Source: Lama glama (Eukaryota). Taken from it: a stretch of 64,000 nt of DNA. A model generated the notes under the pieces. That model was given only the letters and a program-made list of their open reading frames with translations. It was not told where the DNA came from and did no database searches. Numbering within the stretch: position 1 is the first letter of the stretch; the number at the start of each line of letters is the position of its first letter. Below are positions 10,201 through 52,237 of the stretch, piece after piece. The DNA is taken from NCBI GenBank assembly GCA_028534125.1, contig CM052825.1, positions 1,736,001-1,800,000 of the forward strand, given 5' to 3'. Both the position numbers and the translations under genes were made by a program.

Positions 10201-11349
10201 TTACGTCCGCGCAAGTGCAGTGACTGCCACAGGGCAGCTGTCCAGCTGGGGGCTGTACGCCACCCCCACCAGCCCAGAGCACCCAGAGGTCCAGCAGGTA
10301 GGAGGCGGGTCCTCTGGCTGTGCAGCTCACACCTGGCAACCGTCCTTATGCCCAGGGAGGGGTGGGTCTGCCGCCCAGGCGTGGGCGGTCTGGGGCCAGG
10401 GCTCTGTGGGGCATGTCTCCTGAATCTCCGGCTCAGCCTTCTGGCACCCTGTTGCTTGGACGTGGTTGCCCTGGTTTGGTGGATGAGCACACGGAGGGCC
10501 AAAGGGGATGTCCCCTGAAGGAGGCAGAGCAGTTTGGGCCCCAGACCTGCCCGGCAGGGGCTTCTCAGGGCGCTCCCTGCTGCGCCCCAGCATGCCAGCA
10601 GGCCTCTGCCTTCCCTGGCCCCTCCCACCCCCCCCCACTCTGTCCTCCAGGAGAGCCTGTTCACGGAGCTTCTGCACATCCTCTCCACGGACTCAGAGGG
10701 CTTCCCCCGCAGGGCTGTCATGCAGGTCTTCACCCAGTGGCTGAAGGACGGCCACACTGACGTGGCTGAGGACCTGGAGCAGTTCGTGGCCAGAGTGCTG
10801 CAGGTGGCGAGCCGGGACCTGGACTGGGAGGTGCGGGCCCAGGGCCTCGAGCTGGCGCTGGTGTTCCTGGAGCAGTTGCTGGGCCATCCTGGCTCCCGCT
10901 GTCCCTATGCTGTGGCCCTGCCCGAGGCAGCCCCACCTGCCACGCTGGCCCAGGTCCTGCAGGCGCTCTGCCGGGTACAGCTCTTTGAGTTTGCCCTCCG
11001 TGCCTTATTTGACTGTGACCGACCTGTGGCCCAGAAGTCCTGTGACCTCCTGCTTTTCCTGAGGGCCAAGGCCACTCCCTGTGGTGGCCCACAGGAGGCG
11101 GGAGCCAGCCCCGACGTGGTCTCTGTGGAGGCTGCCCTGCAGAGGTGGCAGGCAGGCGAGCAGGGTCAGCCCCTGGGGGAGCTGGAGCCTGAGGCTGTCA
11201 TGGCCGTGCTGAGGTCCATGGACCTGGAGGGCCTTCGGGGTACGCTGGCCAAGAGCAGTGACCACATAGAGAAGAGCCCTCAGTCGCTCCTGCAGGACAT
11301 GCTGGCCTCTGTGGGTGTCCTGGGGGAGAATGAGGCCGACTGTTACTGA
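1080..11349 (+). CDS. BRAT1: BRCA1-associated ATM activator 1 (Integrator INTS9/INTS11 assembly factor), complete spliced CDS, 13 coding exons, 2469 nt / 822 aa
   Basis: Exons 1080-1206, 4030-4184, 5070-5217, 5715-6087, 6366-6482, 7514-7605, 8285-8403, 8478-8664, 8888-8961, 9638-9740, 9861-9959, 10122-10297, 10651-11349. All introns are GT-AG and the phases join into one open frame, [37 protein letters not shown]...ENEADCY*, matching recalled human BRAT1. Confidence 0.97.
1480..3560 (-). mobile_element. Cluster of old antisense L1M fragments in the BRAT1 intron
   Basis: AT/T-rich block in a GC-rich gene. L1-like segments such as gcatttgaggctacacatttctctgaaagtatcactttagctgca and a 3'-end-like piece at about 2310-2520. 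Confidence 0.65.
3020..3105 (-). mobile_element. Short polyadenylated retro-insertion (LTR-like 3' RNA end)
   Basis: Minus strand has AATAAA (3048-3043), then a short spacer and A10; TTCTTTT repeated at 3017-3023 and 3106-3112. Confidence 0.6.
4030..4184 (+). CDS. BRAT1: BRAT1 coding exon 2
   Basis: ctccag|GGCCC; [16 protein letters not shown]...CFQYLQ; donor gtgagc. Confidence 0.95.
5070..5217 (+). CDS. BRAT1: BRAT1 coding exon 3
   Basis: tttcccag|CAGGGG; [17 protein letters not shown]...FLADC; donor gtgagt. Confidence 0.93.
5715..6087 (+). CDS. BRAT1: BRAT1 coding exon 4
   Basis: [20 protein letters not shown]...DLLLSVA; AG/GT flanks. Confidence 0.95.
6366..6482 (+). CDS. BRAT1: BRAT1 coding exon 5
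   Basis: [16 protein letters not shown]...LGILKLQD; donor gtaagg. Confidence 0.93.
7514..7605 (+). CDS. BRAT1: BRAT1 coding exon 6
   Basis: [30 protein letters not shown]; donor gtaggc. Confidence 0.93.
8285..8403 (+). CDS. BRAT1: BRAT1 coding exon 7
   Basis: Branch-point-like cactaac at about 8251; [22 protein letters not shown]...LLQLL; donor gtgggt. Confidence 0.92.
8478..8664 (+). CDS. BRAT1: BRAT1 coding exon 8
   Basis: [13 protein letters not shown]...[16 protein letters not shown]; donor gtaagt. Confidence 0.94.
8888..8961 (+). CDS. BRAT1: BRAT1 coding exon 9
   Basis: [24 protein letters not shown]; AG/GT flanks. Confidence 0.93.
9638..9740 (+). CDS. BRAT1: BRAT1 coding exon 10
   Basis: [18 protein letters not shown]...LFLR; donor gtaacc. 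Confidence 0.94.
9861..9959 (+). CDS. BRAT1: BRAT1 coding exon 11
   Basis: [32 protein letters not shown]; donor gtaagc. Confidence 0.94.
10122..10297 (+). CDS. BRAT1: BRAT1 coding exon 12
   Basis: [14 protein letters not shown]...[11 protein letters not shown]...EVQQ; donor gtagga. Confidence 0.94.
10651..11349 (+). CDS. BRAT1: BRAT1 last coding exon
   Basis: [27 protein letters not shown]...[13 protein letters not shown]...ENEADCY, stop TGA. Confidence 0.96.
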
Positions 11350-30432: not shown

Positions 30433-30736
30433 ATGCTGCAGTGCCGGCCGGCCGAGGAGTTCAGCTTCGGGCCCCGGGCCCTGAAGGATGCCCTGGTGTC
30501 CACCGACCCGGCGCTGCAGCAGCTCTACGCGTCCGCCTTCTCCCCGGCCGAGAGGCTCTTCCTGGCCGAGGCCTACAACCCCCGCAGGACGCTCTTCCGC
30601 ACGCTGCTCATCCGCTCGGCCTTCGACTGGCTCCTCAGCCGCCCCGAGGCCCCCGAGGACTTCGAGGCCTTCCACGCCGCCCTGCCGCCCCGGAAGCAGG
30701 GCCCGACGCAGAGGCACATTTACCTGCAGCCCATAG
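30433..30736 (+). CDS. AMZ1: AMZ1 coding exon 1
   Basis: MLQCRPAEEFSFGPRALKDAL...HIYLQPI; donor at 30737; possible upstream acceptor ending at 30295. Confidence 0.95.
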
Positions 30737-33700
30737 GTGCCCGCGGGTGTGGGCGTGGGCCCCAGGCAGCAGGTGGTGAGGACCTGGGGGGCGGCGGCCT
30801 GGGGCTGGCAGGGAGCCCGGGGAGGGGGGGAGACAAGGGCCTGGATCCAGCACCGGGTGGGGGTCTGTGCCCCGGCCGCAGGCAGGACGTGATCTGAGGG
30901 GAGGCACTCTGGCAGGTGTCACCCAGCTGGCCGGTGTGGCCGGGGGCTCCAGGGGTGCTGGGCACCATGGCCGGGGGTCCCGCTGGGGCTGACGGTTCGG
31001 CTCTGCCCCCAGATCTGAGTGAGGGGCCGGTGGGCAGCGCCCTCCTGGACCATCTGCGGAGCTGCACCGAGGCCTTCTTCCTGGGCCTGCAGGTCAGGTG
31101 TCTGCCCTCGGTGGCGGCCGCGTCCATCCACTGCTCGTCGCGCCCCAGTCAGGACTCTGACAGGCTCCAACTGCACACAGGTGAGCGGGCGTGGCGTAGC
31201 TGAGGCGCAGGCCGCCACCGCTCGGCAGGAGGTCCTTTTTGGAGGCAGAAGGTGGGAGGGAGGAGCCCAGGAGAAGGAAGGAAGCCCTCTGCTTTTCTGA
31301 GGTGGGGGAACGTCTATTTCCCACCCTTTAAGAAAGGAAAACCAAGACAAGGGCGTCCAGAGTGTCCAGAGACTTGACCACACAGCCCCGTGTCCACTGG
31401 AAAACCCCAGGACACGCCGAGCAGGTGGCGCGGACCTCTGAGGCCCTGAGCCCTCCTCCAGCCTTCTGTCTTCACAAAGCACTTGATAAGGGTGGAGAAG
31501 ACCCTCTCCCTGGCCCCCCCCCAGTGCCCGGGGGTCACTGGCAGCTGGAGGGTGAGGCTGGTTGAGAGGCACAGATGACCTGGGGGCTGTCAGACCTGCT
31601 GGAGACCTCAGCGAGGGCCCCGGGGAGGGGCTGCTGCCAGGTCTGGGGCGAGCGGGGTGATGCCCCCTCGGCTGGGGGAAGGCCTCAGCTGTTTGCCTTC
31701 CTTCAGCCTCTGCCCCCTTCCTCCTCCCGTCGAGGATCCCAGCGGGAGGCACGCTCCTCCTCCGTCCGCTCCCACGTCTGGTCTTCCCCCTTGCATTCCA
31801 TCCGCTTGTATTTTCATCCTCTGGTTCCCTGGTTCTCTCTCTAGCTACGCCTCACGCGCCATTAAACCCATGGAGTCCCTAATTGCCGCCCCATTTTTCA
31901 CACAGTTCCTTTTGCAAATAGCAGTGCCACTTTTTTATCGTGCTCAGTTCCCCACTAAAAATGGGTTCCGAATTTACACGTACAAACACAGCCGCCTTCC
32001 AGTCTGTGTCCGTCCGTGCGGCCATTTGTGTTGTTTCTGCTGATGCTGTCCAGGCTGCCTTGCCTCGTTGTGTGTCTTGCTTTTGATTGTTAGTTGGACG
32101 TCCTACGTGAAAAGTCAGTTCAACTCATTTTTTTAGAAGAATCTGTGGCCTGGGATGGTGTAAGTTTTCTCCAGAGAGGGTTCTGTATCTCCTAGGCCAG
32201 GCACCTGAGGGAGCTGACCGTCTCGGACAGGCATGCAGCTTTTCTGGGCCACCCCGATGACCCCGGAGCACAGTCTGCATCCCACCCAGGGTGTGGCCTT
32301 TGGGGGAGCAAGCAGAGCAGGGGTGTGTTGTCAGGGTCACCCCAGCCCCTCCACCCGTCTTAGAAACAACTCAGCTTCGTCTCTCTGAGTTCTGATCCTC
32401 TCCCTGGTTCTAATTTCCCATTAGTTCTCTGATTTGTTAAAAGTCCCGTTGATCAAGGCATAATTTACACGTAGAGAAATTCTTCCTTTGAGCGTATGGT
32501 TCTGAGTCCTCACATACACACACGTCACAAGCTGTCACCACACTCGTGGGGGACAGCTTGTCTTGTCCCCTGCCCCCTGGAGCCAGCGCCTCCCCCTTCT
32601 TAGACGTCTTAAGAAGCCATTCTTTGTGTTTCTCTCGACTTGGCAGGTTACCCCTCAGCCGGAGGTAGTGTGCGTTGCAGCTGGCGCTGATTTTAGGGTT
32701 GACAGGGACTCCTGGCTGGGGTGTCCCAGGCTGCAGGTTTGGTCACTCGCCGGGCACAGCCTTCCCCCCATCCCTGAGGATCTGAGCGGGGCCTGGGGCG
32801 CAGTAGCCGGGCCGTGGCACCACATGGCACCATCATGCCTGCCGTTGCTTCCACCCGACTCGGGGGGCCCAGGGTCCACCCCAGCTGCCCCAGGGGCCAT
32901 GGTGCCTCGGAGACCCCAGCCCTGAGGTGCACGAGCTGTACCTGTTGCTCCTGCACTGTTCACCCCCGCCGCCTCGGGAACGGACCGCTGTTCCCTGGCC
33001 CCACGCCTGAGAGGCTGCATGGATCCCTGGGAAAGAAGGGGGCCCGGGAGGGCTGAGCAAGCAGGCAGAGCCCAGAGGTCATGCAAGTTTAAATTCTTGT
33101 GGCCGGATTAACGTGGCTTGGGCACTGTGTCAGTTTCCTGGGGCTGCTGTGACAGAGCGCCGCCAGGTGGGTGGCTTAAGACAACAGAAGTGGACTTACT
33201 GTCCCACGGTCTGCAGACCAGAGCTCTGAGACCAAGGTGTCGGCGCGGCCTGTTCCCTCTGAAGTTCTGAGGTTGGGGGTAACCTTCCTCGCCTCCTCCA
33301 GCTCCTGGTGGTGGCCGGCCATCCTGGGTGTCCCCTCCCTTGCAGCCTCCCCGCTCCGATCTCTGCCTCCATCATCACATAGGGAAGAAATTATGTGTCT
33401 GTGTCTCTCCTGTGAGGACCCCAGACAAACTGAGTCTGCCCTCATCTTACCTTGACGAGGCCTGCAAACCCCACCCCCAGGAAGGCCTCGTCTCAGGTGC
33501 TGGGTATTGGGGTGTTGACATGTCTTTTGGGGGACAGAACCCCCCCTGTAATAGTCATCACCGTTAGCGCCACCGTAAGAGCTGAAATCCCTTGGCCCCT
33601 CCTAGGTCTCAGGCCAGGTCACACCCTGAGACCCGGGCTCTGGGGCAGCAGCCCGTGGCCGCAGGGGGCCATCAGCCCGCAGACGTGTGGGGAGTGCCCA

Positions 33701-36700
33701 GTGCACGCCTGAACAGTCTTAGTAACTTTTTAATATTTGACTACATGTTAGGATTTTGGATGCATTAGGTTAAAACAATGCATTATTAAAATCAATTTGA
33801 GCCGCTTGTTTTACTTTAAAAGTAGTAAAATTTGAAATTTAGTCGCACGTGCAGCTCACACTGTAGGGCAGCGCTGAGCTCCGCCTTTATGACCAACAGC
33901 CGCGTCTTCTCCGCAGCTGGGGTGTTCACATCCCTGAGTGCTGCCCCCCACCCCCGTTCCCCAGCTCATCAAGTCCTGCCTCTGGTCCTGCCGCCCTCCT
34001 GCTGCCCAGGACCTGCCCCCTGCCCTGACTGCCCCCCTCCTCTCCCCTCCTGTCTGCCCTGGGGTGAATCCAGCTCCCGTCTCCCCTGCAGTGGAACGCG
34101 GCTGGAGAAGACGCACCCTGGGGTGGTCAGCTCCTGCTGCACAACCATGACCCTCGAGGGTGCTTGGTGCCCCCGCCCTTGCGTCTTCTCCCTCTAACCT
34201 CTGATGACAACCTTGCTTTCTTTGCTGAGGAAGTACAAAGGGAACTCCCACGCCTCCCTCACCTCCCCACCTGCCGCCCTGTGCTCCCCGTTGTACAGGT
34301 GGACGCCCCCCGGCCCTCCACCCGTCGCCCTGCCTGCTCCCACCCCTTCCAGCAGCTCTTCCGCTGTCCCCTCTCACGGGAGCTGCTATTACGTCTCCCG
34401 TCTTAACACCCTCGCTGCCCCCGAGGCCCCTCCAACTGCCAGCCTGCTTCTCTGCTGCTACATAGCCACACCCCTTGGTGAGAGTCCTTCCCTCCGGCTG
34501 TATCTGCTTCCGCCTCCCTGAGCCCCCCTGCCTGTTCCCCCCCAGCCCTGCACATTCCTGTCTCCCCGAAGGCTCCATCCCCGCCCCTGCCCTCTCTGCA
34601 CTCACACTCCCAGCGCTGCTGCAGCAAGTTACTGCAGACATGGCGATGTCCTAATGCCTGGTGCCTGAGACGTGACCGCCCCGGGGGATGGGGTTTACAG
34701 CTGTCAGCACACCGGCCGTCCCTTCGTCCACATGAGGTGCTGTGTTCACGGGTCCCAGGCACTAGACGCGACATCTGTGGGGCCGTCCGTCTGCTGCCAG
34801 GGGCTGTAGGGGCTCTTCCCTTGAGCAGCCACCGCACTGGCCCAGTGGCCTTTTCGCTGCTGCCACCTGGATGTCACTGGGTGTCCTGGACCCTGTCCAA
34901 ACCAGCTCTCCTGACAGCTTTGGAAACAGACACCCTGAGCTGCTCCTTCCCCCGGGGCCTGGTCCGTAGCCCCAGCTTCACGTTGTGCCGCTTGGCTGCT
35001 CTGAGTTCAGGCTCAGTCGGACAGTTTCTCAGGGACATCACAAGGTTGTGTCCGACTTTGGGATGGGCTGGTCCCCAGCAGAGGAAGAGGGTGATGAGTT
35101 TGCCTGCCCTGAGCCCTGGGCTGGGAGATGGGGGCCTAGTCACCTCCTCACGGGCCCCCTGCCTGTCCCCACAGACGGCATCTTGTCTTTCCTGAAGAGC
35201 AGCAAGCCAGGGGACGCTCTGTGCGTGCTGGGCCTCACGCTGTCCGACCTGTACCCGCAGGAGGCCTGGACCTTCACCTTCGGCAAGTTCCTTCCCGGGC
35301 ACGGTGAGTCAGAGCCCGGGGCTGGTGCACACTCACATTCTAGCCCCCCATGCGGGAGGGGCCACCCGCCCAGGGCTGCCGTCATGGGGCCCTGCTGGCA
35401 GGGCCGGGCCTTTAGGACCCGTGCGTCCTGAAGGGTGGCTTTCCCCGTGGGCTCCCTGAGCTGAGGCTGCCCCTGGCACCCCTGTCTCCGCCTCTCCCCA
35501 GAAGTGGGCATCTGCAGCTTTGCCCGGTTCTCGGGGGAACTCCTGCAGCTGGAGCCCAGCGCCCCTGACCCGGCCCTGGTGGACATGGCAGCAGATGGCA
35601 CGGAGGCGCCCCTGCAGGACAGAGGCCGCACCATGTGCTTCAGCGCCCTGGGGATGGTCCAGTGCTGCAAGGTGGGTGCGGCGGAGCAGATGTGGGGGAA
35701 GGACGAGGACGGGAGGTTGGGGGTTCTGGCAAGCTCTGGGAAGATGCTGGGCTGTGGAGTCAGACAGGAGGACGTGAGGGGACAGCCCCTGGACCCTCTG
35801 CGTCCAGGCCGTGATGCTGTCCAGCTCTCCCAAGGATGAGGACGAGCCTTCACTCACAGGGCGTGGACACGAAGGCTCAGGGACACCAAGCCGTCTGGGG
35901 TCACACACAGCCCTGACGTGGCGGGGCTGGGACCTGAACCCCCGCATGTCTGGCGTTGGGACCACCACCCCAGTGGCCTGCCTCTCCCCCTGGAGCCCAG
36001 GGTGTCCCGGGGGTCGGGGGTGGGGGCTCAAGGCTGCATGGTGCGGGGACCGTCTCCCGCAGGCCACCTGCCACGGGCTCTGCCACCTCCTGGGCCTGGG
36101 GAGCTGCCGGTGGCTCCGCTGCCTCATGCAGGGGGCCCTCAGCCTGGACGAGGCGCTGCGGTGGCCCCTGGACCTCTGCCCCATCTGCCTGCGGAAGCTG
36201 CAGCACGTCCTAGGCTTCAAGCTCCTGGACAGGTACAAGGTGAGTCCCGCCCTGGAGGGGCGGGGGGCTTGCGGCAGGTGGGATGGATGCGCGTCTGTGA
36301 CCCGCAGGCAACGCAGGCCTGCGCTGTCAGCTCTGGGGGTCTCGTGGGCCTGGCTGCACCCTGGCCCAGGGCTGGTGGCTGTCACCACAGGCTGCTCGGG
36401 GGTGGCGGGGCGCACAGCTTCGATTCCCCAGGCACCCCCAGTCCGAGCCGGTTTTCACCACGCACGGACAGGCGGGCCTGAGACCCTGTCCCCGCACTTC
36501 TGTCCTTACGCTGGGTCTTGCTCACGAGGGGGCCTCCCCGGCATCACCTCCTCTCTGCTCAGCTCAGGCCGCCCGGAGGAAGGGCTGGCCCCTCGGGGGA
36601 GGAGGCAGAACCAGACTAAACAGGAGTCTCTGGAGGGGCCGGCAGGCGCTCCTCTCAGTCGGCCCTGCCCTCCGCAGGGCAAGCCCGCGGGGCGACGCTG

Positions 36701-38559
36701 CCCTCTGCTGCTGGCCCGAGGCACTGCGGGGCCCAGGAGGGCGAGGGGACTCCGGGGGAAGGGGTGCATCCTGTGGGAAAGCTTGTTTGAAAACTCAAAC
36801 TTTGCAAACGTGGTTACTTTTTCTTTAAAACCCACCTTTGGATGAAAACACCAAGGTAAAGTTTTCCTTCAAATTAAGGCACAGGCCTATCAACATAATA
36901 GCTTTGGTTTAATTTTAAGACCCAGAGGTTTAAGCCGGAAGCTTTAAATGAATCCCATGGTGTTTGAAGTTCTGGGAAGCTGGCCTCCCCCCTTGCAGTG
37001 GTCAGTGTCTGGAGACCACTGTGTCCAGGTGCCCACGGAGCGGGCGAGGCTCCGCGTTCCTAACAGGACCCCAGGTTGCTGCTGGTCGGGGACTCTGTGT
37101 CGAGGACCGTGGACTAGGGGCTGGGCACTTCCAGGTCACAGAGCTGCCTCCTGGCACAGCTCTCTCCCAGGCGTCTCCATGGTAGAGAGCAGGTCCAGGG
37201 GCGCCGAGGAGACGGCCTGCCTGGTGGGAGAGAGGAGGTGCCGAGCCGCAGCTGCCCGGCTGCAGACTGGCCGACAGTCCTCAAGAGGGTGTGACTGGTG
37301 TGTTCGTCAGCGGCGAGCGCCTGCCCCACCAAGCGCAGGGTCAGGGGACTTGGCCATAAGCAGCTCATTATCTTCACGGTGGGTTTACGGTGAAGGGAGG
37401 CAGGGGGCCCTCAGCCTGGACGAGGCACTGCAGCGGCCCCTGGACCTCTGAAAAGGTGGTCTGAAAAGGTCTGGGATTTCTCATTATGTCCTTTCTTGGG
37501 GTCCTGCCCGCCTGTCAGACAAGAACCCCCCCATTCATCCCTCCCTGGACACCCCCCACCCTGCCCGAACCTGATTCCTAACCTGGTGGGGCCCCGGGGC
37601 CGCCCTGGGTCTGTACCAGTCGGGGGTGTGCTGGGAAATGCCGCTAAGGAAAAGCCTCGATGTGGAGTATCCGCCCCTGTCCATGGCGTGAGGACCCCAC
37701 CACGGCCAATTCCGAGCCGTCCCTGGAGAGGGTCGGGAAGAGGTGGCCAGTAGTGGACCCTGGGTGTGTCGGCTGCACGAGTGCGCCAGGAGCAGAGGCG
37801 CTGGTGGCGTGTTGGAAAAGCGCCAGCCGCGTTTTTGCTGGAGGGCTGTTCCACTGTCAGTTCTGCGAGAACGGACCCTGAATGTCGGCCAGGCTTGCAA
37901 GGCCCCTGGAAGCTTGCCTCTTCAGAGGCACTGGTCTGAGGGCCCCTGGGTGGTGGGGCCCCTTGGCCAGGGAAGTGGCCGCGCAGGCCGGCTCAGCCCG
38001 TGTCTCTCCCTCTTAGAGGCTGTACTTGTGGACTCAAGTGGCGGCGGGGACAAGGCCTGGCCTGGAGGCGGGGGAGCCGTCTGTGTCTGAGGACACCCCG
38101 CCCTGCAGCGCGGACTCGGGCCTGTGCTGTGAGAGCGACTCGGAGCCGGGCACCAGCCTGTCGGAGCCCCTCTCCCCCGACGCCTGGAGCCACGCCTTCC
38201 CTGCTGGCCCTGAGCTGGAGCCCGAGGATGGGCTGGGCTCCCTGGCGGCCGCCGAGGGGCCAGTGGCGGCCCTGGCGGAGCACGGGCGGTGGCTGGCGGC
38301 CTGCGTCCAGGCCCTGGAGAGAGATGTGACCGAGGATGAGCTGGCAGAGCTGGACAGGGCGGTGGATGGCCTGGCCCGCTGGGAGATGTTCACCGGGCGG
38401 CTCCCGGCCCCCAGGCAGGGCCTGCCCTGCGGCAGAGACAGTGCGGGGCTGCGCAGAGTCCTGGGGGACAAGTTCTCCTCCCTCAGGAGGAAGCTGAGTG
38501 CTCGCAAGCTGTCCCGGGCCGAGTCCTCCCCCCGGCGCTGGAAGGCCGAGGACAATTAG
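30433..38559 (+). CDS. AMZ1: Archaemetzincin-1 (archaelysin family metallopeptidase 1), complete spliced CDS, 6 coding exons, 1491 nt / 496 aa; catalytic motif reads HGLCH
   Basis: Exons 30433-30736, 31013-31180, 35175-35303, 35502-35671, 36063-36239, 38017-38559 are GT-AG flanked and in phase. Protein MLQCRPAEEFSFGPRALKDALVSTD...KFSSLRRKLSARKLSRAESSPRRWKAEDN* matches recalled human AMZ1. Confidence 0.96.
31013..31180 (+). CDS. AMZ1: AMZ1 coding exon 2
   Basis: LSEGPVGSALLDHLRSCTEAFFLGLQVRCLP...RLQLHT; donor gtgagc. Confidence 0.95.
33128..33552 (-). mobile_element. MLT1-type (ERVL-MaLR) solo LTR
   Basis: tcagtttcctggggctgctgtgacaga...gtggcttaagacaacagaag...ccaaggtgtcggc. Confidence 0.8.
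33720..33876. mobile_element. hAT-Charlie DNA transposon remnant (MER3/MER33-like)
   Basis: AT-rich block with tgactacatgtt...ggttaaaacaatgcattattaaaatcaatt...gcagcgctg end. Confidence 0.55.
35175..35303 (+). CDS. AMZ1: AMZ1 coding exon 3
   Basis: GILSFLKSSKPGDALCVLGLTLSDLYP...FLPGH; donor gtgagt. Confidence 0.95.
35502..35671 (+). CDS. AMZ1: AMZ1 coding exon 4
   Basis: VGICSFARFSGE...ALGMVQCCK; donor gtgggt. Confidence 0.95.
36063..36239 (+). CDS. AMZ1: AMZ1 coding exon 5 (zinc-binding motif)
   Basis: ATCHGLCHLLGLGSCRWLRCLMQG...DLCPICLRKLQHVLGFKLLDRYK; donor gtgagt. Confidence 0.95.
37400..37450 (+). repeat. Intronic 51-bp duplicate of part of AMZ1 coding exon 5 (36128-36178)
   Basis: 48/51 identical by direct comparison. 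Confidence 0.9.
38017..38559 (+). CDS. AMZ1: AMZ1 last coding exon
   Basis: ctcttag|AGGCTGTAC; RLYLWTQV...SADSGLCCESDSEPGTS...WKAEDN, stop TAG. Confidence 0.95.
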   Translation, partial: RLYLWTQVAAGTRPGLEAGEPSVSEDTPPCSADSGLCCESDSEPGTSLSEPLSPDAWSHAFPAGPELEPEDGLGSLAAAEGPVAALAEHGRWLAACVQALERDVTEDELAELDRAVDGLARWEMFTGRLPAPRQGLPCGRDSAGLRRVLGDKFSSLRRKLSARKLSRAESSPRRWKAEDN

Positions 38560-40486
38560 CACGGCTGGTGTGTCTTGTCCAGCACCTGCCCGTCCCAGGA
38601 CACCAGCTGCCCCGGCGCCGCGGGCCCAGAGCCGCCAGGAAGGAGGTCTTGGGGGAAGCAGAGGGAGCGCCGTGCTCCCCCATGCCCAGTCCCAACCCTC
38701 GGCGGTGGAGCCCAGCATGGGGTTCCTGGGCCCCGGGAGGGCCGTCCTCAGCCCCACCAGACCTCAGAGTGGGTGGCGGTGAACAGGCACTGCTTCTCCT
38801 GTGGCCTGGGGTCCCTCCAGCCGTTCACAGCAGGAGCTCGGAGGCAGCCCTGGGCAGGGCGGCACAGTGGAGGTGGGCGGCCTGATGCTGCCAGCTCAGG
38901 TCCAAGGCCCACAGGCAGGGTCTCCAGTGCAGGGGGTTGTTTCTATGTAGTGCCCCCCCTCCCCGAGGAAGGTTGCTTTCTGCAGCAGTAACTGCATTCT
39001 GCCCTTGGAGGGCGTCTCCATGGGCCTTGGGGACGGCCACCACCCACTGGAGGACGTGCCCAGGGCTCTGCACCAGGAAGGGAGGGTGTCGGAGGGGCAG
39101 GTGGGAGGTGCTGTGAGCAGAGGCCCTTCTGCCTCCCCAGACAGCTGCCTGCTGTGACTGGCAGTGGGGAAAGCCAGCTGGGGTTCTGCCCCCGGGACCG
39201 CTGTCTGACACTGGCGGTCCGCATGCCTGCGAGGGCGGTGTGGTCAGGGCTTTGTCCAGGACAGCTGTCGTCCGGCGGGGCCTTCGGGTCTAGCTCACCC
39301 AGTCGCCGGGAGGGTGTGAGAACGCCCACCACCCCTGCAGGATGGGCTCCCTTTAGTTTTGCCAAATTTTGCTTCTGGTTATTTGAAGCTCTTTTATGGA
39401 CACACATTTGACTGTTTTCCTGACAAACTGACCCTGTTTTCATGATCACATGTGTTGGGGAGCGATGCTTCTGGTTCTGACGGCAGGATCCCAGCAGAGT
39501 GAGGAGCGGGCTCAGCTATGTTCCCATCTGGGAGGGGGTGAGGACGGGGCAGGCCCTGCGGCTTGCGGGCAGCTTATGCAGTTTTGGGGGCCTTCTAAGA
39601 AAGACAACACAAAATACAAATACAGAATCAGGAGGGCACCCCCACCCCCAGCAAGAGCGCCTGAAGCCTCCCTGGAATCAGGCCAGGTGAGAATGTAGGT
39701 CCCAGTCCCAGAAAAGCGCAAAGGAACGAGGCCATCGTGCACGTGAAGGCGCCCAGATGCAGCTCTGCCGCCCCCGCCCTCGTCTGCACGGCTGTGAAGG
39801 GGTGTCGCGGGGCCCCACCGCCAAGCAGGATGGCGGCGGCTGGCGCCTGGGTGTCTGCTGCTGTGAGCACACCGCTCCCTCCTCGGTGGCTTAAAACCCC
39901 AACCGTCACTCTAGCTCGGGAGTCTGCAGTGCGGGCGGGCCTTGGGGGGCCGGAGCGGCCAGCGCTAGCGTGGTTCACTCACGGGGCTGCCGCGTGGCTA
40001 GGCTTCCTTCAAGCGTGGCGGCTGCCTGCTGACGGCGGATTTCCTAGAATCATGTGGAAAAGGCTAGAGGTTGAAGATCATCACTTCCACTCTATTAAGG
40101 CCACCCCGTCACCTGTGCTCACACCCGGGGAGGGGCTGTAGACCCCACCTCCGGGCTGTGGCCAGGTTCCGAGGAGCGTGAGGTGGAAGACCTGCCTCCC
40201 CCTGCGTGGACCGGCCGTCACGCCGGCAACACCACCTGACCTACTCTGCTTTCTGTGAAGAGTAACTGCCTCAGGGATGGAAGACGACCCAGAGGGGACA
40301 GAGGGGGCTCCATGCCAGGTCTTCAGCACCAGCTATCTGTGCCCATGGCCTTTGCCTCCCAACTGTCATAAGTGTCCCAAAACAGCATCCTGAAGTCGGG
40401 AGGGACAGACCGCTTCCTCCCTGGCCTCCACCAGCTGCAGATGGAGTACAATTTTCAAAGACAGCCGCTGGGAGGAATGCTTTGAA

Positions 40487-50755: not shown

Positions 50756-51325
50756 TCACTGCAGCATGATGTCCTTCAGGTTCTCCTGCAGGATGGTGTC
50801 CTTCACGGCGTGGAACACGAAGCGGATGTTCTCGGTGTCTATGGCGGTGGTGAAGTGGTGGAAGAGGGGCCTGCTGCGGTTCCGCCGCTTCCGGTCGAAA
50901 CCCTGGACCAGGTAGCGCTGCACGTCCTCCAGCCTGTGCGGGTCGCCCCGGAAGTCCGGGAAGTGCTTCTTGATGCTGACGGTCTTCACCTTCTCCACCA
51001 GCAGGTCCATCTTGTTGAGGAACAAGATGATGGAGACGTTGAAGAACAGCTTGTTGTTGACGATGGTCTCAAAGATGTTCATCGACTCCACCAGCCGGTT
51101 GGTGCGCCGGTCCTCCATGAGGACCTGGTCGTACTCACTGGAGGAGACCATGAACAGGATCGACGTGATCCCGTCAAAGCACTGGAACCACTTCTGGCGC
51201 TGAGACCGCTGGCCGCCCACATCCACCATCTTGAAAGGGATTTTTTTAATGACAAAGTCATGCTCCACGATGCCCTTGGTGGCCTTCCTTGCCAGCAGGA
51301 TGTCCTGCTTGCTAGGGCAGTAGTT
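50756..51325 (-). CDS. GNA12: G protein subunit alpha 12, last coding exon (residues about 193-381)
   Basis: [24 protein letters not shown]...[12 protein letters not shown]...FLNKMDLL...[12 protein letters not shown]...[11 protein letters not shown]2-G5 boxes present; acceptor AG at 51327-51326. Confidence 0.98.
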
Positions 51326-52237
51326 CTGCAAAAACAGGGTAAGGGAGCAAGTCAGGAGGAAGAACGTGAGAAAATAAGAACGAAGAGATGGGGTGGAGCG
51401 GAAGAGAGTGAGACGGACTTCTGCAAGAAGTTGAACTCAATTCCAACAGCAACTTTCACGTATAAAAATACAGACTTACCGTGAAACAGAAAGTGAAGGA
51501 ACTAAGTAGCTCATTTCAAAGTGAATGGGGGCCTATCAGACTGAGGAAGGAGGGTCAGACGCCTCCTGTCAGGCCCCAGCCTGAAGTCCCAGCCACTCCC
51601 TTCCCCACGGGGACCTACCATCCTTTCTCCCCCTGCACCAGAGCTACCCTCTATTTTCCTAACTTCCAGGCCACACGTCTTCCAAAACCTTATTGTGAAC
51701 TGCTTTAAGTTACGTTTTGCAATGCTGTTTAAATTTAGCCTGCAATATATTCAATATTTTATTCTTGGAGGACTCCTAGAGTCTTCAGCAACACACAGGC
51801 AACTGTGGTCCCTCAGGCCGCTTTGATCCTGCGCTACGCAATTCTGCAGTGATCACTGCACACCAGCACTCACGCAGCATCCTCGCCAAAAATGCAGCAG
51901 GGACGGGGCCTCTAGACCCAACTACCAATTCACAAGGCACACGGGGAGAGAAACTTCCTCAAAAGCACTGCAGGGACGGAAGAGCCAAGTCCAGATGGGA
52001 GGAACCCCACATGGGAAATGGTCCAGTCACTCCTGCATCAAATAGAGTGGAAGAAAGAAAAGAGGGAGGGAGAAACCCACAGATGGAAAGGAGCTTCAGT
52101 GACGTGGACCAGCTGCGACGGGTGGGCCTCACCAGGAGGGCGGCTCAAACTGCTAGAATGGCGCAGCGTCCCCAGGGACGTCACTGAGACAAGCGGGGAG
52201 GCTGGCTGATAGTAAGGAGTTACTTCTAATTATTACC

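Follow-up and report, generated by a model that had tools for sequence, protein, structure and literature searches.

A glycine at the general-base position of AMZ1 in camelids, and the case for AMZ1 as a probable pseudoprotease

The AMZ1 gene of the llama

The stretch of Lama glama DNA analysed here (64,000 nucleotides, hereafter the window) contains a complete gene for the archaemetzincin AMZ1 on the forward strand. A model built from tblastn matches and splice sites joins six GT-AG exons, from 30433 to 38559, into an intact protein of 496 aa. Coding exon 1 (30433..30736) opens with the ATG at 30433 and is followed by exons 2 (31013..31180), 3 (35175..35303), and 4 (35502..35671), the 3' end of which encodes C255-C256-K257, the start of the active-site helix. 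Exon 5 (36063..36239) encodes aa 258-316, with the degenerate zinc motif, the Met-turn, and the Cys4 site. Exon 6 (38017..38559) carries the AMZ1-specific C-terminal tail and ends with a TAG stop.

Exon 5 lies immediately 3' of an AG acceptor and begins with the codons GCC ACC TGC CAC GGG CTC TGC CAC, the segment 36063-36110 being translated as A-T-C-H-G-L-C-H-L-L-G-L-G-S-C-R. The HExxH position (H261-G262-L-C-H265, 36072..36086) has the first two zinc-binding His of an active metzincin, H261 and H265, but Gly262 (GGG, 36075..36077) replaces the general-base Glu, and Ser271 (36102..36104) replaces the third ligand, a His or Asp in xxGxxH/D. In metzincins devoid of the general-base Glu, the zinc-bound water is not activated and there is no normal hydrolysis. 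Gly262 aligns in register on the Glu of HELGH (2x7m) and HEIGH (3zvs), with E of 0.15-0.3, and presumably arose by a single A>G change at 36076 from an ancestral GAG. A second camelid change on the same helix is A258 (36063..36065), which is Val in 64 of 73 orthologues. The zinc-finger-like Cys4 site (C272, C277, C296, C299; 36105..36188) follows the pattern C-x4-C-x-M-x16/17-C-xx-C, with Met279 of the Met-turn inside it (36126-36128), and Leu283 (36138-36140) stands where AMZ2 and archaeal AmzA have Asn. The original prediction, made from the letters of the window alone, had read the same GGG codon and HGLCH motif in an intact frame with intact splice sites, the same four Cys, and a Ser for the third His. 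The six-exon model reproduces all of these, with identical residue numbers.

Best matches, the single copy found, and synteny identify the gene as the AMZ1 orthologue. Profile scores lie below the curated cut-offs: 19.2 bits against 24.4 for PF07998 (exon 5 taken separately gives a weak match to Pfam Peptidase_M54), 54.5 against 145 for NF033823, where the eel AMZ2 (96) also falls below, and 30.3 against the equivalog cut-off of 250 for the CarG-type NF033824, where pig AMZ1 likewise falls below. The AlphaFold2 model has a mean pLDDT of 54 and a pTM of 0.53. Core blocks are mostly at 60-90, a helix spans 249-266, and pLDDT is 55-56 around 271-290. The five top rows of a Foldseek search with this model are archaemetzincins, including 2x7m, 3zvs, 3lmc, and 4axq (best E 2e-5, TM 0.70 by target). 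The predicted structure thus indicates that the metzincin fold is kept with its active-site helix. A search of the ESM Atlas with the tail (330-496) gave no usable match.

Other features of the window were recorded along the way. The llama protein differs from the Vicugna pacos RefSeq protein (P0108) only by R291W (TGG, 36162-36164), a CpG-type change that is perhaps an individual variant; Trp at 291 also occurs in guinea pig, degu, and mole-rats. Exon 5 contains an in-frame internal acceptor AG at 36130-36131; splicing there would remove aa 258-280 and with them everything from HExxH to the Met. Nine records (sea lion, tree shrew, humpback whale, tenrec, and five birds) and both pangolins have such isoforms annotated. 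The intron after exon 5 holds a 51-base copy of the exon 5 interior (37400-37450, 94% identical) that begins 4 bases before the internal acceptor, has CGG where exon 5 has TGG, and lacks the HExxH motif. A large G-alpha exon on the reverse strand (50759-51436; PF00503, E 1e-72) converges on AMZ1 and is likely the 3'-terminal exon of GNA12. A long open frame on the forward strand (10519-11346) has a weak TOG/HEAT-like match and is possibly the last exon of BRAT1, a gene that we take to be a neighbour.

Gly262 in camelids and the repeated loss of active-site residues across AMZ1

All six camelid-type records that cover the motif read HGLCH: dromedary (P0002, P0109), wild or Bactrian camel (P0005, P0107), alpaca (P0108), and a protein from contigs of a sequencing run (P0001). 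Three further records of the cluster (P0110-P0112) are C-terminal pieces that do not span the motif. Pig, peccary, cattle, buffalo, hippo, narwhal, and rhino have Glu at 262. The alignment called for by the original prediction therefore gives a change that is common to camelids and absent from the other cetartiodactyls examined, and the sequencing error or private variant for which that prediction had allowed is ruled out, since Gly262 is found in records of both camelid tribes. The presence of Gly262 in camels and alpaca also makes the change older than the camel-llama split, about 16-17 million years ago. Searches of the llama genome, whose counts are lower bounds, revealed no second AMZ1 copy and no spare Glu-bearing exon. 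They recovered at least one AMZ1 and at least one six-exon AMZ2 with the motif exon HEIGHIFGLRH. There are also at least three AMZ2-like copies that lack introns and contain stop codons (G000 C12, C3, C37; L003, L004) and are likely to be processed pseudogenes.

The loss of active-site residues goes beyond camelids, and beyond what had been predicted: it recurs across AMZ1 orthologues. The alignment comprised 73 AMZ1 proteins, with most species represented once and with isoforms and fragments excluded; among them are four camelids and one low-quality bat record. As a control, we used the best 120 of 2343 matches to an eel AMZ2 query, a fish-heavy set. Among the 73 AMZ1, H261 is kept in 71, E262 in 66, H265 in 67, and M279 in 68, and the third zinc His is missing in 71 (His in 2). 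In contrast, all 120 of the best 120 AMZ2 have H, E, H, and the third H. At H261, E262, and H265, AMZ1 requires a minimum of 12 changes over a core tree length of 6.3 (10 when the bat record is removed), against none over 12.4 in the best 120 AMZ2, a difference with P of about 2e-6 (2e-5 without the bat record). The four Cys (272, 277, 296, 299) show no change in either AMZ1 or the best 120 AMZ2.

Glu262 is replaced by Gly in camelids, Gln in jerboa, Val in lesser hedgehog tenrec, and Lys in Chinese pangolin; for jerboa, tenrec, and bat, the loss is documented by a single record each. It is retained in all 18 sauropsids, the marsupials, and the echidna. The Lys is present in both records of Manis pentadactyla, a species outside the 73. 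The second zinc His is Arg in all four Equus records, both Pongo species, sloth, tamandua, and a sac-winged bat, and it is also lost in salamanders. The pangolins (P0056, P0421, P0424) differ from each other: M. javanica has the whole HExxHxxGxxH, with His at 271, and M. pentadactyla has the same His with Lys for Glu. The low-quality record of the bat Rhynchonycteris naso (P0138) departs at 28 conserved columns, including H261R, E262A, and M279T, which is possibly a true gene loss in one bat.

In the ranking of site rates, E262 lies at the 52nd and H265 at the 60th percentile of the core, both outside the invariant class. The rate of E262 is about half of the protein mean and the residue is kept in 66 of the 73 proteins, so that Glu262 is still under some selection. 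Judged by this pattern of substitution, E262 and H265 appear to be constrained as ordinary structural residues are, unlike catalytic ones, yet they are not free. Position 271 has changed at least 17 times among N, S, T, R, H, and K. Around the cleft, Asn, His, and Asp at 283, 284, and 289 are invariant in the best 120 AMZ2 and replaced in AMZ1, with Asn283 present in 120 of the former and in none of the 73 latter. This Asn corresponds to Asn138, in the S1' wall of Archaeoglobus fulgidus AmzA as described in PMC3427221. C255, C260, and C264 are each found in 70-72 of the 73 AMZ1, where the best 120 AMZ2 have Ser, Thr, and Gly. We also took 140 further representatives, 113 of which cover the motif: 101 have all four residues, and 9 of the other 12 are AMZ1-like. 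Some of the AMZ1-like representatives are distant (43-47% identity) and have Asn in place of the third His, which implies that the loss of this His is old. In two distant homologues from the same 140 (P0181, P0192), all three His are present and Gly or Val replaces the Glu; these are further candidate pseudoproteases.

Because several other mammals separately lost active-site residues, AMZ1 likely acts without proteolysis. The explanation that we favour, and regard as likely, is that the camelids carry an intact AMZ1 with Glu replaced by Gly in both tribes, and that AMZ1 is a non-cutting pseudoprotease across vertebrates, with a predicted binding or scaffold role. Points against it are the complete motif of M. 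javanica and the Glu262 that most orthologues keep under some selection. The best reading of the motif data would then make the camelids one case of a family-wide pattern, a natural knockout of the active site.

The main alternative, which we consider unlikely, holds that AMZ1 is bifunctional: most vertebrates would retain a weak or narrow peptidase activity at a two-His zinc site, and camelids, equids, orangutans, xenarthrans, and others would have forfeited this activity alone and kept a non-catalytic role. The retention of E262, H261, H265, and M279 in most of the 73 proteins fits this view, and so do the 18 sauropsids without any loss, although the placental rate predicts only about 1.8 changes in the sauropsid subtree (tree lengths 0.8 and 4.03) and observing none is unremarkable. 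The Ala-aminopeptidase activity reported for human AMZ1 (Diaz-Perales 2005, as cited in PMC3427221 and PMC4681839) points the same way. According to PMC4681839, E183Q leaves the archaeal AMZ-tk with minimal activity, but its His-to-Asp mutants, including the third-His mutant H192D, keep about 20%; the loss of the third His need not abolish catalysis. However, the human activity "has to be confirmed" in the words of PMC3427221. The losses are moreover spread over unrelated diets and habits, and the many changes at position 271 are unlike those of a ligand. The 2005 study has reportedly been withdrawn; our literature search gave no confirmation of this, and the withdrawal was not counted as evidence. 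Both the bifunctional and the pseudoprotease readings agree that camelid AMZ1 itself very likely does not cut, to judge from its residues, as had been suggested at the outset for a full-length but probably catalytically dead protein.

Selection on camelid AMZ1

We compared the window with Camelus using a neutral rate taken from three intron contigs of one run, in which 30 of 833 bases are unlike those of the window. The variants of these contigs match P0001, and we infer that the run is from Camelus. The window protein and that of Camelus, equal in length at 496 aa, differ at 15-16 residues, where 37 +/- 9 differences are expected under neutrality (P 0.002-0.005); the 201-residue core has 5 differences, against about 15 expected. 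Root-to-tip lengths are 0.076-0.087 in camelids and 0.085-0.124 in six other cetartiodactyls. None of eight relative-rate tests on the core was significant, and the significant tests outside the core had the camelids as the slower lineage (lengths and tests are based on an assumed species topology). We thus found no rate increase of camelids over pig, whale, or cattle. Camelid AMZ1 has been under purifying selection after the camel-alpaca split.

The original prediction had offered a non-proteolytic role or relaxed selection as the meaning of Gly262. The first has gained support. Gene-wide relaxation is contradicted by the neutral-rate comparison and the relative-rate tests, and only the active-site helix looks relaxed. 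Over 205 conserved columns, camelids depart at 4-5 (6 with the R291W of the window), pig and hippo at none. The changes are R93Q, K94R, V258A, E262G, and I413V, two of which lie on the active-site helix. The coding sequence (30433-38559) has a GC3 of 0.905, and since E>G, H>R, and V>A each exchange an AT for a GC pair, GC-biased conversion was considered as a driver; this was unsupported (39 versus 29 unambiguous departures of 133, P 0.27).

These departures would also be expected of an early-stage pseudogene, in which camelid catalysis was lost and the frame survived by chance. The intact frame is weak evidence against it, the chance of no stop under neutrality being 0.23-0.36; a C. ferus record bears a low-quality label; and none of four sequencing runs yielded a contig over exon 5, hence no spliced RNA over the codon. 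Against 35700-38100, three of these runs gave no contig and one gave intron and exon 6 contigs only. Four RNA runs contain 0.26-0.27 of the words of 35100-39600, but the one of them that was also among the runs assembled against 35700-38100 gave no contig, and the words were not counted as expression. The deficit of amino-acid differences, in the whole protein and in the core, the ordinary root-to-tip lengths and relative rates, and the length of 496 aa in both tribes render a pseudogene very improbable. That camelid AMZ1 hydrolyses by another route (a migrated acid, substrate-assisted catalysis, or a new Cys-based metal site) is scarcely credible: the conserved AMZ1-specific C255, C260, and C264 and the predicted pseudoenzymes that turned out active, e.g., USP53, speak for it, but R93Q, K94R, V258A, E262G, and I413V add no acid.

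A predicted binding role and its known counterparts

The features by which a pseudoprotease is recognised, missing catalytic residues, a kept fold, and purifying selection, are found together in camelid AMZ1. We therefore return to the pseudoprotease explanation, under which AMZ1 probably uses a metzincin fold stabilised by a zinc finger for binding or as a scaffold, with AMZ2 keeping the peptidase role. After the AMZ1/AMZ2 duplication, AMZ1 would have lost the third His and the Asn-His...Asp residues of the pocket, and its active-site helix would have acquired the cysteines C260 and C264. The former catalytic residues would then have been under ordinary structural constraint only, hence their occasional drift, and AMZ2, intact in this genome, would have retained the peptidase role. 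The fold, held by the Cys4 zinc, would most likely bind a partner protein through the cleft or the Cys-rich helix, by analogy with CarG.

A broader version, somewhat less secure but still favoured, is that AMZ1 has been a pseudoprotease since early vertebrates, with its selected function in the Cys4 site, the Cys-rich helix face, and the C-terminal tail. Camelids, Chinese pangolin, jerboa, tenrec, equids, and orangutans would then be natural knockouts, and the reading of the AMZ1/GNA12 hydrocephalus locus as a loss of protease would be wrong. PMC8036322 classes AMZ1 as an aminopeptidase, a review of normal pressure hydrocephalus (PMC12911591) counts it among the metalloproteases that degrade matrix, and PMC11361830 describes a hydrocephalus risk allele as reducing brain AMZ1 expression. 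If the broader version is true, this locus has been misread as a loss of matrix proteolysis. A fixed loss of the general base in a protein under selection, repeated in other mammals and differing between sister pangolins, provides a comparative test of whether AMZ1 needs catalysis. E262G itself is an ordinary point substitution and gives no pointer to special camelid biology.

Doubt on the activity of AMZ1 has been in print since 2012: PMC3427221 names the Glu as the catalytic base and describes AMZ1 as having Asn, Ser, or Thr where the third His would stand, "raising some concern" about its activity. The present analysis contributes a control set of AMZ2, a test against the neutral rate, and the two pangolins that differ at Glu262. 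Our literature search, whose scope stopped short of subscription papers and supplements, found no printed report of the camelid change.

Among known systems, the closest is vertebrate AMZ1 (M54, PF07998). Aligned from end to end, the window protein is 84-86% identical to those of pig, narwhal, and rhino; it shares with them the missing third His and the intact Cys4 site, and a G-alpha gene adjoins it, as at the human AMZ1/GNA12 locus. It differs in also lacking the general-base Glu and in V258A on the same helix. AMZ2 and the archaeal AmzA and AMZ-tk have in common with camelid AMZ1 the fold, Gly268, the Met-turn, and the Cys4 motif. Their HExxHxxGxxH is complete (in 120 of the best 120 of 2343 AMZ2) and the Asn of the S1' wall is present, whereas camelid AMZ1 has lost this Asn along with the Glu and the third His and is about 135 residues longer. 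The nearest functional parallel is CarG of Myxococcus xanthus, described in PMC3427221 as an inactive homologue with a regulatory role, in which an archaemetzincin fold likewise has its catalytic Glu replaced. CarG is bacterial and has Gln for this Glu, whereas camelid AMZ1 has Gly. Its score below the NF033824 cut-off makes camelid AMZ1 an analogue of CarG and not a member of that family.
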